In this document: positions 1 to 9,008 of the stretch, piece after piece | How positions within the stretch are numbered: position 1 is the first letter of the stretch | How the letters are laid out: every line of letters starts with the position of its first letter | IMG/VR virus record: IMGVR_UViG_3300045988_162215 | Source: a virus | Strand: one strand, 5' to 3' | Length of the DNA: 13,133 bases | Notes under the pieces: model-generated | What the model was told of the DNA's origin: nothing | The model's input: only the letters and a program-made list of their open reading frames with translations | Databases searched by the model: none | Position numbers and translations under genes: made by a program

Positions 1-219
1 ATTCTTCTACCGCAATAAGGACAAATTGTTGGATTAGTTTTAATCACACGTGCAGAACGACATCCCGGTTCATACATATCTCCCCAGCTAGACCGCCATT
101 CGCAAAACTCTTTTTCCTTATCTTTTTCAGTCTGCATAATCATCGCATCCAAACCATTTAATCTACCATCATACTTTGGACTGGTGATAAATGAACTGCC
201 AATATTCATATCAAACATT
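1..219 (-). CDS. hypothetical protein, partial (C-terminus lies beyond window start); N-term MFDMNIGSSFITSPKYDGRLNG..., Cys pairs near end
   Basis: Open minus-strand frame from ATG at 219..217 to the window edge with no stops. RBS GGAAAGGAAG sits 9 nt upstream, the same initiation cassette as at 1111. Confidence 0.55.
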
Positions 220-5101: not shown

Positions 5102-5356
5102 TTATTTTTCATATGGTGACATATCTCTTCTAGTTACAGTCATTTCTGCATCCAAGAAGTAAATTTGATTATCCGATAAAAAACGAGCTAATTGTCCATT
5201 TTTAAGATTAACTGCATTAACTTGAATGGAGCAATCTTCTGGATAGTTTGCGGTTTCAATTTTCATATAACAATTATTGTTATATTCAAATAAATCTCCT
5301 ATATTAACAGATTTGAAAGGGTATGTTTGATTAGTTGGTATTTTTATTTTAAGCAT
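5102..5356 (-). CDS. paralog 3 of a tandem small-protein family (84 aa; ...GDLFEY...NAVNLKNGQ...)
   Basis: RBS AAAAGGAG before ATG 5356..5354 (the track start was an upstream TTG). Shares sequence pattern with 5374..5604 and 5637..5858. Confidence 0.65.
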   Translation of the reverse strand: MLKIKIPTNQTYPFKSVNIGDLFEYNNNCYMKIETANYPEDCSIQVNAVNLKNGQLARFLSDNQIYFLDAEMTVTRRDMSPYEK

Positions 5357-5373
5357 ATTATTACTCCTTTTAA

Positions 5374-5604
5374 TTAACAAATTCCAAATCCTGATGATGT
5401 CGTTAGAGTTAACTCATCTACTGGAATAACTCTGTTATTAGCGCGGAAAGCATAAAATTCTCCATTTTGTAAATTAACTGCATTTATTTTATGTCCTTCA
5501 ACCTTTATAAAAGCAATGTCATCTTCGCCATATAGGAAGATTTCTCCTACCTTTAGTTGGCTAAAAAGACATTTCTTATCTGAAAGAAGCTTTCTTATTT
5601 TCAT
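5374..5604 (-). CDS. paralog 2 of tandem small-protein family (76 aa; ...VGEIFLY...INAVNLQNGE...)
   Basis: RBS AGGAGGGA 4 nt before ATG 5604..5602. The track start was in-frame upstream, so real start is M11. Confidence 0.65.
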   Translation of the reverse strand: MKIRKLLSDKKCLFSQLKVGEIFLYGEDDIAFIKVEGHKINAVNLQNGEFYAFRANNRVIPVDELTLTTSSGFGIC

Positions 5605-5636
5605 TATATCCCTCCTAGCATTTAATGGATACATTC

Positions 5637-5858
5637 TTATCTTGAAATAGACAATGTTGCTTTTACTGGAAATACTACTGTATCAGAGCTAACTTCAGCT
5701 AGCATATTCTTAGTTAAATCTACAGCATTTTTACAACTATTATTACCACCCACTTTTAAGAAAACGGAATCATCAGCATTGCTACTTAACATAAAACACT
5801 CTCCAATTTCAAGTTTTTTAAATCTAATACCTGTTAGAAGATTTTTTTCAATTATCAT
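5637..5858 (-). CDS. paralog 1 of tandem small-protein family (73 aa; ...IGECFML...KNAVDLTKNM...)
   Basis: RBS AAAGAAGG 7 nt before ATG 5858. First gene of the long leftward operon. Confidence 0.65.
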   Translation of the reverse strand: MIIEKNLLTGIRFKKLEIGECFMLSSNADDSVFLKVGGNNSCKNAVDLTKNMLAEVSSDTVVFPVKATLSISR

Positions 5859-5947: not shown

Positions 5948-5976
5948 TTGACAAACAAAAATAAGTTTGTTATAAT
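5948..5976 (+). promoter_or_regulatory. rightward consensus promoter TTGACA-17-TATAAT for plus-strand cluster
   Basis: TTGACA 5948-5953, spacer aacaaaaataagtttgt, TATAAT 5971-5976. About 95-nt leader to ATG 6076 with RBS GGAGGGAG. Confidence 0.7.
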
Positions 5977-6075
5977 ATTATTAGAAAATAAATAAAAATA
6001 AAACAAAAGCAGTTAACAAAAGGTTTGAATAAAGACATGACGGATCGAATCTTTTCGGATTGCGGAGGGAGATAA

Positions 6076-6360
6076 ATGGATTATTTTAATAGAAATAATG
6101 ATGAAGAGATGGGTGGGATCAGCTATTGTAGCTGTGATTTGAACCCAACTGGTATTACTGCTAATCGAATTAAGTTTGGCGATGTGACAATGGATATAGG
6201 TGATTTAAGAGTAGATAAATATGATAAAATAATAAAAGAACTGTCTGATAAAGTTGAAGTAATTATGAAACATTGTTCTTTTAAACAAGAGAAGAAAATA
6301 AGTGAGTGGCGGGAGTTTGACTTAGAGGCTGCTACAGGGAGAGAGTTTGAGACACGATGA
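6076..6360 (+). CDS. hypothetical protein (94 aa)
   Basis: RBS GGAGGGAG 5 nt before ATG. Stop overlaps the next start (ATGA). Confidence 0.65.
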   Translation: MDYFNRNNDEEMGGISYCSCDLNPTGITANRIKFGDVTMDIGDLRVDKYDKIIKELSDKVEVIMKHCSFKQEKKISEWREFDLEAATGREFETR

Positions 6361-6560
6361 GTTGGGTTATTATTTTGATTTATATAGCGATAGCTATTGT
6401 TAGTTTATATTTTGGATTTCGCGCGGGAGTTGAATTGATTGTTGCGGCGATCCGCAAGAATCCAAATAAAATGTTGGCGGCAATGGGAATAAGAGTAGTA
6501 AGGAGAGTTGAACATGAGGATACCACAAAGCGTGGCTCGCGCGATAGTAAGAATACATGA
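6357..6560 (+). CDS. small protein with N-terminal TM helix and basic C-terminus (67 aa)
   Basis: ATGA overlap with the upstream gene. Weak RBS (GGGAGAGAG about 11 nt upstream). Confidence 0.5.
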   Translation: MSWVIILIYIAIAIVSLYFGFRAGVELIVAAIRKNPNKMLAAMGIRVVRRVEHEDTTKRGSRDSKNT

Positions 6561-6602
6561 TTTCATTGTTTATAGAATTTGGACAAAATTCTAAACTATG
6601 TG

Positions 6603-6617
6603 TTGGGCAAAAGCCAA
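6603..6617 (+). terminator. weak hairpin TTGGGC-aaaa-GCCAA followed by TAATTTGTTTG
   Basis: Short imperfect stem after the stop of 6357..6560. May attenuate before the internal promoter-like TTTGTA-17-TATAAT at 6625-6653. Confidence 0.25.
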
Positions 6618-6669
6618 TAATTTGTTTGTAATTGTTTACAAATATAGTATAATGAGAGAAAGGAGGATT

Positions 6670-6840
6670 ATGGAATTGAATCTTCAAGAAACATGTCAGC
6701 GATTGAGGCTGAGTGAGTCGACTCTACGAGAGGCGTTTCCGCGCACTGTTAGAACTTTAGAAAAACAAGGTATTAAATTAACTAAAGTTGGCAGAGGGCA
6801 GAATGCAGATTATACTATTGAATATGTAAACAAGGAGTGA
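6670..6840 (+). CDS. putative helix-turn-helix DNA-binding protein (56 aa; MELNLQETCQRLRLSESTLREAF...)
   Basis: RBS GAAAGGAGGA just upstream of ATG 6670 (short spacing). The track ORF started further upstream without an RBS. HTH-like segment QRLRLSESTLRE. Confidence 0.5.
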   Translation: MELNLQETCQRLRLSESTLREAFPRTVRTLEKQGIKLTKVGRGQNADYTIEYVNKE

Positions 6841-6845
6841 TTTAA

Positions 6846-7028
6846 GTGCCAATAAGAACCAAATATAAAACCATTTATTCTTTAAGAGTAAGGATGCTTT
6901 TAAGGGATATGGGTTTTGAGCCTCTATTAGAAAAAGATAATATATATAGATCTGGATTGAAGTGCTGGATATATGAAGTTACAGATAATTTTAATAAAGC
7001 TCTTGATAAAATATTAGGGGGTAATTAA
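6846..7028 (+). CDS. hypothetical protein (60 aa), GTG start
   Basis: RBS AAGGAG 8 nt before GTG 6846. Stop 1 nt before the next RBS/ATG. Confidence 0.5.
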   Translation: MPIRTKYKTIYSLRVRMLLRDMGFEPLLEKDNIYRSGLKCWIYEVTDNFNKALDKILGGN

Positions 7029-7029
7029 A

Positions 7030-7317
7030 ATGAAAGCTGTAACCACAGATAGACCAGTTAAGTATGAGCCGGGAGAATTTTTTCAAATTTCAAATAAAGG
7101 TTTGAAGGCAGCAGCTAGTCTTAATAATAATGGATTATTATTGTGGTTATATTTGTGTAAATTTAAGAGTGGTACTAAGTGGAAGATAAGCCCGCAGGCT
7201 ATCAGTAATGAACTGGGGATAACTTTAGATAAAGCTAAGAAGGTTTCAACTATTGGATACCAAGAATTAGTTGCAGCAAATTTTATTAGAGATGATGTGT
7301 TCTACGCGGACGGTTAA
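7030..7317 (+). CDS. winged-helix DNA-binding protein resembling RepA_N / phage replisome-organizer N-terminal domain (95 aa)
   Basis: Motif GLLLWLYLCKF...WKISPQAISNELGITLDKAKKVSTIGYQELVAANFI resembles the initiator winged helix of Firmicute plasmids and phages. RBS GGGGGT. Lies directly upstream of the iteron array. Confidence 0.6.
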   Translation: MKAVTTDRPVKYEPGEFFQISNKGLKAAASLNNNGLLLWLYLCKFKSGTKWKISPQAISNELGITLDKAKKVSTIGYQELVAANFIRDDVFYADG

Positions 7318-7320
7318 ATA

Positions 7321-7480
7321 AAAGTGCTAAAATGGCACTTTTTAGATACAAGGAGTCTATTAAAAAGTGCTTAATCGGCACTTTTATATACAAGGAAAAG
7401 TGCTTAATAAGCACTTTTTAATGAGCAGAAAGTGCTTAATTGGCACTTTTTTCTAAGGAAAAGTGCTTAATCGGCACTCT
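7321..7480. repeat. array of five 21-bp palindromic iterons AAAGTGCTTAAT(N)GGCACTTT at 7321, 7364, 7397, 7429, 7460 (spacing 43, 33, 32, 31 bp)
   Basis: Seen directly. Copy 3 (7397-7417) is a perfect palindrome AAAGTGCTTA-A-TAAGCACTTT; the others differ at 1-3 positions. Spacing is about three helical turns. Confidence 0.85.
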
Positions 7481-7520
7481 AATATATAAATAGAGAATAA
7501 ATACTAAATAAATAAATAGA
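7481..7520. other. 40-bp AT tract (4 G/C in 40) immediately after iterons; candidate DNA-unwinding element
   Basis: aatatataaatagagaataaatactaaataaataaataga. Confidence 0.5.
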
Positions 7521-7521
7521 C

Positions 7522-7578
7522 GGTATAAATAATCTTTACGTAGTTCGCTTCGCTCACTACTCCAAGATTATTTATACC
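7522..7578 (+). repeat. hairpin A: 15-bp stem GGTATAAATAATCTT/AAGATTATTTATACC, internal loop, 4-bp inner stem GTAG/CTAC, 13-nt loop TTCGCTTCGCTCA
   Basis: Perfect inverted repeat seen directly. Confidence 0.8.
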
Positions 7579-7625
7579 TTTAGGCGCGGCGTAGTGATGT
7601 AATGTTACAAAGGGGCCGGCGTAAA

Positions 7626-7680
7626 GAGATTAAAACCTTGGAATAATGAGCGAAGCGAATTATGGAATGGTTTTAATCTC
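7626..7680 (-). repeat. hairpin B: 12-bp stem GAGATTAAAACC/GGTTTTAATCTC, internal loop, 4-bp inner stem ATAA/TTAT, 13-nt loop TGAGCGAAGCGAA (exact reverse complement of loop A)
   Basis: Same architecture as hairpin A with a different stem sequence. The loop is identical when read on the opposite strand. Confidence 0.8.
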
Positions 7681-8045
7681 GTCCCTATATTTAATAGTGT
7701 ACTACTTTTTTAACATTTTTCTTAGAGTTGATTGCTCAATTGAGTTGGAGCAAAGGAGAAAAAGGATGGATATAAATATATTGAAGAGGGGTATGATAAT
7801 ATGGATTTTATAAATACTTGTGTAAGACCTAAGTCATATAATATTTATATATTAGATATTGATGATGTGGCGGATAGTATTATGAATCCGCGGCGGTTTT
7901 AAGGGCTAGGTTAAAAGGGGTGCAGGGCAATGCCGCGCATACAGACATTAGTTTTAAAAAATGATCTGAATTTGGGTTAGAAGCCCAAGCCTCCCTTTTA
8001 TCTTACGTTACTTTGCTATTGTTATTAAAGAGAGGAGAAATAGTT

Positions 8046-8294
8046 ATGTTTAATACGGAGATTGTTGCTAAGGATATTGATGGTATAAAGACGCAGTTGA
8101 GGAAGGCATATGATGGCGATGTGCCGGCGGGTTTAGCTGTTTTTTATTGGTTAAAGAATAATGGTATAGGGATTAGAGATAGGAATGGTGAGGTTGTTAG
8201 GGATGAAGATTTGTATAGTTTTTGTATAAATTATGGCGCGAGTGTTGATAGGGCTATTGTTGCGGCGAAGGGTGAAGGCGCATATGGCGTTTAG
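8046..8294 (+). CDS. hypothetical protein (82 aa)
   Basis: RBS AGAGAGGAGAAA 6 nt before ATG 8046. The track ORF began at an upstream in-frame TTG. Confidence 0.6.
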   Translation: MFNTEIVAKDIDGIKTQLRKAYDGDVPAGLAVFYWLKNNGIGIRDRNGEVVRDEDLYSFCINYGASVDRAIVAAKGEGAYGV

Positions 8295-8335
8295 AAAGAT
8301 GGGAGTAAGTATACCGAGTATGGTAACAGCTAAGA

Positions 8336-8501
8336 CAGGACATTTTGTCTTTATAATAGTGTTTTGTTTTTAGATAGCACTTTATGTTGAATAGTGTTTT
8401 TGTCGCTGGATAGTATTTTGTCTTTGATAATGTGTTAGATAGCATTTTTGTCTTTAGATAGTGTTAGATAGTACTGTATAGTGTCAGATAGTGTTTTTAT
8501 C
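8336..8501. repeat. degenerate direct-repeat array, units TAGATAGTGT / TTTTGTCTTT alternating with about 10-bp periodicity (at least 10 units)
   Basis: e.g. tagatagcat|ttttgtcttt|agatagtgt|tagatagtac|tgtatagtgt|cagatagtgt|ttttatctgg. Lies between convergent genes 8046..8294 and 8640..9008. Confidence 0.7.
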
Positions 8502-8599
8502 TGGCCGCGCATACCCTGGACCATGTTACCGTCACCGTTATCGTTTTAGTCTCTCTTTTCTTTATTAAGAGATCCCTAGACGAGAACCCGCGCAAAAAA

Positions 8600-8626
8600 T
8601 CCCTGTACACATTACATGTACAGGGA
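8600..8626 (-). terminator. intrinsic terminator TCCCTGTACA/TGTACAGGGA, then UUUUUU on minus strand
   Basis: 10-bp perfect stem downstream of the stop of 8640..9008. AAAAAA at 8594-8599 on the plus strand gives the U-run on the minus strand. Confidence 0.65.
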
Positions 8627-8639
8627 CTAACTACTTAGA

Positions 8640-9008
8640 CTAAAAGAACTTGAAAAGATTGAACAACTCCGCCATAGGATCTGACTCTGACTTCTTCTTT
8701 ACCTTAGGCTTAGGCTTACTCTCCGCTGTATCCATTGCCTGAATAAAAAGCTCGATAAACTTCAACTTATCAGTCATGTCCTTTGTAATCTCATTTGCGT
8801 CTTTCTCTGAAATTTCAGCTCCAGTAATAGCTTCCACATAATCCAACAAATCAGCAATCAGATATTTTCTTGCATCTTCTACCTCTGTAGGATCAATCTT
8901 TCTCTTATCCTTGGCTGCGGCAACCGCATCGGCTTCCGCCTGCGCCATCTTGCTAATCTCTTCAACTGACTTTCCTTCTGCAATAAGTTCTGCTATTGTT
9001 TTACTCAT
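8640..9008 (-). CDS. acidic protein with basic/hydrophobic C-terminal tail (122 aa)
   Basis: RBS AGAAGAGG upstream of ATG 9008. Its own promoter is at 9048-9076. Confidence 0.7.
   Translation of the reverse strand: MSKTIAELIAEGKSVEEISKMAQAEADAVAAAKDKRKIDPTEVEDARKYLIADLLDYVEAITGAEISEKDANEITKDMTDKLKFIELFIQAMDTAESKPKPKVKKKSESDPMAELFNLFKFF

Follow-up and report, generated by a model that had tools for sequence, protein, structure and literature searches.

The viral DNA analyzed in our study, in the following called the window, is a stretch of 13,133 nt from IMG/VR record IMGVR_UViG_3300045988_162215. It harbors a gene for a winged helix-turn-helix (wHTH) protein of 95 aa, followed by a series of palindromic repeats, an AT tract and two hairpins, A and B, which enclose a short core (Table 1). 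Hairpin A is conserved in this phage group, its stems covary, and its position and orientation are fixed relative to the module formed by the wHTH gene, the repeats and the AT tract, while hairpin B is optional. The phage has a double-stranded genome of about 137-140 kb, and related contigs comprise 122-140 kb.

Table 1. Coordinates of the hairpin locus and its surroundings in the window, and of hairpins with the same tip in other contigs.
Feature	Contig	Position	Strand	Description
Divergent promoter	window	5921-5893	-	partner of the promoter at 5948-5976
Sigma-70-type promoter	window	5948-5976	+	TTGACA, 17 nt, TG-TATAAT; extended -10; 12/12 consensus matches (consensus match only)
wHTH protein gene	window	7030-7317	+	95 aa; presumed binder of the downstream repeats, candidate initiator
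Five palindromic repeats (iterons)	window	7320-7343, 7362-7385, 7396-7419, 7428-7452, 7459-7479		AAAGTGCTTAATCGGCACTTT; directly after the wHTH stop codon
AT tract	window	7480-7521		(ATAAATA)n-like, 42 bp, 12% G+C; candidate DNA unwinding element
Hairpin A	window	7522-7578	+	outer stem 15 bp, 7522-7536/7564-7578 (GGTATAAATAATCTT/AAGATTATTTATACC); 3x3 internal loop
Hairpin A, inner part	window	stem 7540-7544/7556-7560; tip 7545-7555		GTAG/CTAC plus T-A pair
Core between hairpins	window	7579-7625		47 nt, two CGGCGTA motifs; left half invariant, right half variable
Hairpin B	window	7626-7680	-	outer stem 12 bp (GAGATTAAAACC/GGTTTTAATCTC), internal loop, inner stem ATAA/TTAT; tip 7648-7658
Tip as DNA				d(TGAGCGAAGCGAA)
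Hairpin with same tip	L035			385-kb phage, intergenic
Two adjacent hairpins	L047	2185-2240		intergenic, tips CTCGCATTCGCTC and TCGCTTCGCTC; unrelated 74-kb phage with NAMPT-like gene
Hairpin with purine tip	L052	9230-9320	-	GAGCGAAGCGA in 5' untranslated region, about 10 nt upstream of ribosome-binding site
Hairpin with same tip	L063			unrelated contig, hairpin context only
Hairpin with same 13-nt tip	L071			Bacteroidota-like chromosomal contig
GTCATTCY-tip-RGAATGAC hairpins	L129; L142; L154; L170; L177	L142 7590-7625; L154 about 99-150; L170 3420-3460; L177 about 140-180		Bacteroidota; tip TCGCTTCGCTC

Both hairpins lie where the initial annotation had placed them. When folded as DNA on either strand they reached z scores of -5.4 to -7.5 (-7.4 and -7.5 for hairpin A) and none of 200 shuffles was as good, while RNA folding resulted in z scores of -6.0 and -8.8, with -21.8 kcal/mol for A and -19.2 kcal/mol for B. 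The outer stems of 15 and 12 bp and the internal loops are shared as described, but the 13 nt do not form an open loop. The first T pairs with the last A, and the inner stem therefore comprises 5 bp and the tip 11 nt. The 13-mer TTCGCTTCGCTCA at 7544-7556 (plus strand) is the exact reverse complement of 7647-7659, as had been reported for the two loops, and no further site was found in the window with two mismatches allowed (0.18 expected). Accordingly, the tip reads TCGCTTCGCTC on the plus strand at A, and GAGCGAAGCGA on the minus strand at A and on the plus strand at B. Moreover, the 47-nt core is indeed GC-rich (51% G+C vs 32.6% in the window). Rfam returned no match over 7522-7680 even at E <= 1, with chance matches on repeats only, and the exact 11-mer appeared in no relevant paper that we found. 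As far as could be checked, the element is thus undescribed, in agreement with the annotation.

The stems of the two hairpins had been regarded as unrelated, which our comparison contradicts. The arms at 7531-7569 and 7634-7672 are 79% complementary over 39 nt, and in an alignment of A with the reverse complement of B 10 of the 15 outer pairs are identical. In six pairs both partners differ, there is no pair in which only one of them does, and 95.9% of the cells are paired, a result that none of 500 shuffles reached. Besides, TCCAAG occurs in both sequences on the 3' side of their inner stem. Given the complementary arms and the full compensation, B is an inverted copy of the entire hairpin A that has diverged. 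All of the about 50 stem pairs are Watson-Crick pairs and none is G-T which, together with the compensation, fits the need of a signal usable on either DNA strand. A covariance model built from A and the reverse complement of B, as the annotation had proposed, did not detect additional copies, neither in the window nor in contig L099 (20 kb), and in IMG/VR there is one hairpin locus per contig. A mobile palindrome related to miniature inverted-repeat transposable elements (MITE) or repetitive extragenic palindromes (REP) was rejected, as we saw a single locus per contig and no further copies.

To assess conservation we used nine assemblies of the same phage group (window, L001/L003, L002/L004, L080, L082, L084, L099, L100), for which the close relatives had been recovered by DNA-pattern scans and exact-protein look-up. 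Substituted columns were counted among eight aligned genomes and the ninth, L002, was read directly. Hairpin A is identical wherever it could be read, with 0/57 columns substituted. The same holds for the AT tract (0/42), and with 0/99 columns the two form the most conserved stretch, compared to 3.8% substituted columns in the wHTH gene, 11.1% in the repeat region, 15.6% in the upstream genes and 20.8% in the core. Hairpin B is intact in four lineages, i.e. the window, L002/L004, L080 and L082. In L002/L004 it carries one substitution in the internal loop (7641 G>A) and in L082 a compensatory pair change (7646 A>G with 7660 T>C). In 4/9 assemblies it is deleted in part: L084, L099 and L100 lack 21 nt comprising the tip and the inner stem, and L001/L003 lacks 41 nt (7641-7681), apparently by a second step, between CTTG repeats, that followed the 21-nt deletion. 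The DNA of the close relatives turns mosaic immediately to the right of B, with different downstream genes. The conservation of hairpin A as one block with the AT tract next to mosaic downstream DNA argues for a role at the DNA level that is tied to the upstream module.

The module also occurs in more distant loci, with small DNA-binding genes, the wHTH gene, palindromic repeats and an AT tract in this order. The genes preceding the wHTH gene encode an RHH protein and a small unannotated protein in L111 and L112, and a DUF5659 protein in L106-L108. Each locus has from 4 to 12 or more palindromic repeats, and in L101, L102, L103, L111 and L112 the repeat sequence changes along with the wHTH protein. 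In the same five loci the repeats are followed by an (ATAAATA)n tract ending in AATAAATAG. In total, six lineages of this protein family, which is very rare, have the arrangement of gene, repeats and (ATAAATA)n. L101, whose wHTH protein shares 54% identity with that of the window, has about seven repeats and the AT tract, and then a single hairpin at 597-635. Its 12-bp stem (GTTATCTAACGC/GCGTTAGATAAC) is unrelated in sequence to that of A, contains an A.A mismatch and has a G-C closing pair in place of T-A. However, its tip is TCGCTTCGCTC exactly as in hairpin A, on the same strand relative to the gene and in the same place. In both lineages with a hairpin, it starts no more than 3 nt from the end of the AT tract. 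No second hairpin was found in L101, and no tip-bearing hairpin in L102, L103, L111 and L112. In two lineages the hairpin thus belongs to the module as an accessory and strand-oriented element. Protein-guided locus searches of IMG/VR and GTDB genomes returned only the two known contigs or nothing, an alignment of six of the protein sequences was too divergent for use as a query, and a search for L101-type hairpins in IMG/VR found nothing. We also observed at 376-466 of L101 that the deposited model of protein P0002, with 128 aa, continues past an in-frame TGA at 392-394 into the repeats; under table 11 the protein has 104 aa and the repeats are non-coding. In addition, TTAG and a short stretch consisting only of G+C directly follow the hairpin in both lineages (GGCGCGGCG and GGGGCCGGCG within 7579-7625 of the window, TCGGGCCGG at 636-650 of L101). 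Such a stretch is unusual at about 32% G+C and may be a further conserved site.

Taken together, hairpin A is the functional unit and B an optional, dispensable and lineage-specific inverted copy. This bears on the two proposals of the annotation. Paired single-strand initiation signals beside an iteron/AT origin were borne out with respect to the repeats, the AT tract and the GAA triloop context described below, but the pairing itself is not conserved, as the partial deletions and L101 demonstrate. The second proposal, in which the tips of A and B form a 13-bp kissing complex within one transcript, can hardly be upheld. The tips are perfectly complementary as it demands; however, since B is an inverted copy of A, its tip is bound to be complementary. 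Moreover, A occurs without an intact B in the deletion lineages and without any B in L101, and the predicted optimum of the joint RNA is an extended A:B duplex with -63.4 kcal/mol compared to about -41 kcal/mol for two local hairpins. An invertible segment was rejected too, since only one hairpin is present in L101 and in the deletion lineages.

The mosaic DNA right of B would also fit a recombination junction or a mutational by-product, i.e. template-switch hotspots or relics at a module boundary with no dedicated function, which may be likened to the promoter-stem-loop cassettes of T4-type phages. In favor of this, the deletions in B are nested and lie between short direct repeats, and the double change in L082 raises the complementarity between B and A, so that it may represent a single templated event. 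Nevertheless, the complete lack of substitutions over the AT tract and A while the neighboring DNA varies, the retention of the tip on an unrelated stem in L101 and the presence of only one locus per genome stretch examined render this explanation improbable. A similarly low probability was assigned to a duplex or cruciform site, in which the tip with its direct repeat TCGCT-TCGCT would be recognized by a phage-encoded or host regulator of the origin or of downstream transcription. Such a site would agree with 11 invariant bp between varying flanks, with two inverted copies within 100 bp as in many operator pairs, and with the small DNA-binding genes nearby, including the RHH and DUF5659 genes of the distant loci. 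But duplex binding does not need self-complementary, fully compensated flanks of 12-15 bp, and a single site is sufficient in L101 and the deletion lineages.

The 11-nt tip itself was predicted to fold into a triloop closed by two G-C pairs, with a 2x2 internal loop beneath them (nearest-neighbor folding, giving the topology only). Its purine strand, T-GA-GC-GAA-GC-GA-A, contains the heptamer d(GCGAAGC), which has its sole two copies in the window at 7547-7553 (minus strand) and 7650-7656 (plus strand), both within the tips. The tips thereby carry the sequence d(GCGNAGC) that defines a class of mini-hairpins with two G-C pairs and a sheared G.A pair closing a one-base loop (PMC13037366). GCGAAGC was described as an extraordinarily stable DNA mini-hairpin in a 2026 review, which lists related mini-hairpins in the priming site of phage G4, in RSF1010 ssiA (CCGAAGG) and in the hairpin promoters of phage N4 (PMC13037366). 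G4 and related complementary-strand origins contain d(GCGAAGC)/d(GCGAAAGC) mini-hairpins, and here the exact GCGAAGC likewise tips a longer hairpin beside a presumed initiation region. In contrast, the DNA of phage G4 is single-stranded and its origin, with three hairpins, depends on DnaG, whereas the phage studied here is double-stranded and its heptamer is flanked by GA/GA inside an invariant 11-nt tip.

In phage N4 the promoter hairpin is located on the template strand. A hairpin of this type, extruded on that strand and read by a phage RNA polymerase or primase, could start rightward transcripts or a primer RNA, and the GAA triloop indeed lies on the template strand for the rightward genes both at A and in L101. 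N4 stems, however, have 5-7 bp, while the hairpin here has about 25 bp with internal loops, so that an N4-type start about 11 nt from the loop center would fall inside the stem and the hairpin does not qualify as such a promoter. Furthermore, B would drive transcription toward A, and no virion-type RNA polymerase was seen in the available DNA. A hairpin promoter is therefore very unlikely. What the two have in common are the purine triloops, which in N4 are GGA or GAA on 5-bp stems (PMC13037366).

The annotation had suggested searching for the loop in other genomes. Such scans recovered it in close relatives, in other phages and in Bacteroidota, but they also yielded many chance matches, including about 7/30 mirrored pairs. 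Clear hairpins with the same tip on unrelated stems are listed in Table 1. One of the tip copies in L047 lies inside a coding gene. In L052, a viral contig of 22.7 kb, two GCGC-GTA-GCGC triloop hairpins are situated near the tip hairpin. L071 contains an array of repeats of about 21 bp (ACTGTAATCCCATACGCACGG-like) at 5230-5500, about 120 bp from its tip hairpin; we dropped this locus as evidence for an origin because of its Bacteroidota-like chromosomal context. All these loci were chosen by their tip sequence, and their covariance-model scores are therefore not independent evidence. The hairpins of the form GTCATTCY-GAGCGAAGCGA-RGAATGAC, for which we know of no name, share the identical 11-nt tip, but they have unrelated stems followed by T-runs and are located on chromosomes of another phylum, the Bacteroidota. 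In L154 and L177 the stems are perfect over 13-15 bp before the T-runs, and these hairpins look like terminators or REP-type elements. The tip is thus a widely reused hairpin cap and not private to this phage, which fits an intrinsic structural advantage. This reuse on unrelated hairpins weakens the claim that the tip alone identifies an origin signal.

The terminator-like hairpins of L154 and L177, with the same tip in the same orientation, are also in line with a role of hairpin A at the RNA level. In the rightward early transcript it could serve as a 3' end, a stabilizer, a pause or a processing site, e.g. for RNase III, and separate the wHTH operon from the variable downstream genes, while B would be a by-product or pair with A as long double-stranded RNA. 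Downstream of the strong promoter at 5948-5976, small genes form a rightward operon that ends with the wHTH gene, and judging from the same-strand genes on either side rightward transcription probably continues through 7318-7766. The RNA folds given above are very stable, and the hairpin of L101 ends 23 nt before the next start codon and about 11 nt before a GGAGG ribosome-binding site. Early mRNAs of SP82 and T7 are cut at intercistronic hairpins, and these RNase III sites resemble hairpin A, a long, irregular hairpin with an internal loop between early polycistronic genes of a large low-G+C phage. To our knowledge a conserved loop is not required at RNase III sites; moreover, the element studied here differs in being fixed to the AT tract and duplicated in inverted orientation. 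It follows the AT tract and not the downstream gene, which varies among relatives. There is no U-tract after A (TTTAGG) or after the L101 hairpin (TTAGTC), and a scan for intrinsic terminators found none at 7522-7680 on either strand, B being followed by GTCCCTAT; an intrinsic terminator was rejected for lack of a T-run. Besides, none of the stem pairs is G-U, selection of a tip on one RNA strand would not explain why an inverted copy shows this tip, read 5' to 3', on the opposite strand, and GCGAAGC is special in DNA and at A is located on the strand that is not represented in the RNA. In view of these points we consider an RNA-level role rather unlikely, though it deserves more weight than the alternatives discussed so far.

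The features upstream of hairpin A correspond to those of an iteron-type origin, with a repeat array beside a candidate initiator gene and an adjoining AT-rich tract. The pattern AGTGCTN6GCACT occurs at five sites in the window, all within the repeat region (7320-7479; 0.07 expected), and the start-to-start spacings of the repeats are 43, 33, 32 and 31. They are presumed to be bound by the wHTH protein. Relatives of this protein are extremely rare, as an exhaustive HMMER search found only eight among 1.84 billion representatives and a profile search added a few more. The protein of the window had no Pfam match; two of the six wHTH family members matched HTH_36 (5e-7), with a marginal DnaD_N match (E = 0.15). 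Its AlphaFold2 model (pLDDT 83, best model only) gave generic wHTH matches in a Foldseek search of the Protein Data Bank (PDB), all with E > 0.4, and a sequence and profile search of the PDB gave no match. Hence, no significant likeness to known initiators of the Rep, O or DnaD type was detected by Pfam, PDB sequence or Foldseek searches, and neither the PDB profile nor the fold search distinguished an initiator from a regulator. Nevertheless, repeats that change with the adjacent gene and precede an extremely AT-rich tract represent the classic layout of an iteron origin, which makes an origin the most likely identity of the module. We regard this identity as fairly probable on the basis of the layout.

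A comparable arrangement is known from the lambda origin, in which four 18-bp iterons are joined to a 38-bp AT-rich sequence, so that in both cases an array of dyad-symmetric initiator sites precedes an AT-rich stretch of about 40 bp (PMC3349717). As is probable here, the lambda array is transcribed from an upstream early promoter. The lambda origin is, however, located inside gene O, whereas the array described here follows the gene, and the 95-aa protein has no homology to O. The locus thus shares the architecture of a lambda-type origin but does not belong to that family. In lambda a palindrome lies beyond the AT-rich region; we know of no conserved tip in it.

With regard to the hairpin, we tentatively favor a function as a single-stranded DNA hairpin at the edge of the origin unwinding element that acts as a priming or loading signal, a reading to which we give somewhat less than even chances and in which hairpin A would be an analogue of ssiA/ssiB of RSF1010 and not a member of that class. 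On binding of the wHTH protein to the five repeats, the 42-bp AT tract next to them would melt. The A+T-rich outer stem of A directly continues this tract. Opening is therefore expected to extend from the tract into the stem and to let the palindrome fold back. The resulting bottom-strand hairpin would be capped by GAGCGAAGCGA, in which the GAA triloop sits on two G-C pairs, a possible tandem G.A and a closing pair, and its 3' side would lie in the melted AT tract. The capped hairpin could hold the origin open and mark the start of rightward leading-strand synthesis for a primase or helicase loader. Where B is present, leftward synthesis could use it as an equivalent signal on the top strand, B being dispensable. 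At a minimum, hairpin A would be a structure that holds the origin open. A role at the DNA level is favored by the lack of G-T pairs, by the inverted copy showing the same 5'-to-3' tip on the other strand and by the special stability of the tip motif, which is a property of DNA.

The proposed priming or loading function has a parallel in RSF1010, where oriV contains two 40-nt inverted repeats on complementary strands that are exposed by unwinding, and the RepB' primase starts 3' of the ssiA hairpin (PMC8567376). The oriV of RSF1010/R1162 (IncQ) resembles our locus in having iterons, an AT-rich stretch and two inverted repeats of about 40-55 nt on complementary strands, which become single-stranded on origin opening (PMC8567376). 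Similarly, its hairpins are capped by a GAA triloop closed by G-C/C-G pairs, with CCGAAGG in ssiA (PMC13037366). On the other hand, no relationship could be detected at the sequence level. With about 25 bp and an internal loop, our hairpins are much longer, and B is dispensable, the distant relative L101 having a single hairpin. The genes for RepA, RepB' and RepC were not seen in the about 25 kb of phage DNA examined (window and L099), and ssiA/ssiB were described as unique to IncQ plasmids. The partial loss of B in 4/9 assemblies, its absence from L101 and the lack of a RepB'-type primase in these 25 kb therefore speak for an analogy to ssiA/ssiB rather than membership.

Several points weigh against a dedicated origin hairpin. 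Replication enzymes of any kind were not found in the 25 kb examined, no known initiator matched the wHTH protein at a significant level, and in four other lineages (L102, L103, L111, L112) the module exists without the hairpin. A role at the RNA level retains some probability, with a strong upstream promoter from which the region is probably transcribed. The tip is a generic cap that is also found in Bacteroidota terminator-like hairpins and in a phage 5' untranslated region, and is not confined to an origin signal. Furthermore, templated self-correction can keep the arms of a palindrome complementary without selection. Finally, the real origin could lie in a second array of repeats, at 8340-8505.

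This second array is situated between convergent genes and consists of about nine copies of (G/A)ATAGTGTTTTTGTC-like units. In L100, a related contig of 137 kb, the assembly ends inside an expanded array with at least four copies of GGATAATGTTTTTGTCTCT. Apart from the true origin, the window's second array may represent a further array for protein binding or one end of the genome. A partition centromere as an explanation of the hairpin locus was rejected because there is no NTPase gene nearby and it would leave the AT tract unexplained.

Mini-hairpins of the d(GCGAAGC) type have long been suspected at replication and transcription starts, but natural examples with evidence for selection are few. 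The invariant tip, the changing stems and the fixed place beside an origin-like module make this idea directly testable. More speculatively, the GAGCGAAGCGA-capped hairpin would constitute a new class of structure-specific initiation signal at origins of large Firmicutes phages, a single-stranded DNA hairpin with a hyperstable cap that a priming or loading protein of the phage or the host recognizes, although we believe this to be unlikely. In that case hairpin A would be the first natural mini-hairpin with comparative evidence of selection, given its invariant tip and covarying or replaced stems, and the occurrence of the tip on unrelated stems in other phages and Bacteroidota would point to a widely reused structural cap. 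The hairpin would also provide a handle for mapping the replication origin of an uncultured group of phages of about 110-140 kb, and the same 11-nt tip on unrelated hairpins elsewhere raises the question why this cap recurs.

With many small genes of no assigned function, the window has the appearance of the early region of a large phage. A tRNA scan found no tRNA. From the promoter and ribosome-site features the host of these phages was judged to belong to the Firmicutes. A megablast search with 6000-9000 and a tblastn search with the 95-aa protein gave no match in cultured-phage records, and the sole link to cultured phages is the open reading frame at 319-972 with a 30% match to the Bacillus phages SP-10 and SBSphiC. 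At 5102-5858 on the minus strand, three tandem paralogous small genes (92, 86 and 73 aa) of the same PHROG families, with no assigned function, run divergently from the wHTH operon behind the promoter at 5921-5893. Moreover, a perfect 9-bp palindrome (CCCTGTACA-N7-TGTACAGGG) at 8598-8630 lies just downstream of the leftward gene 8640-9008, is conserved in L099 and is likely a terminator or stabilizer hairpin.

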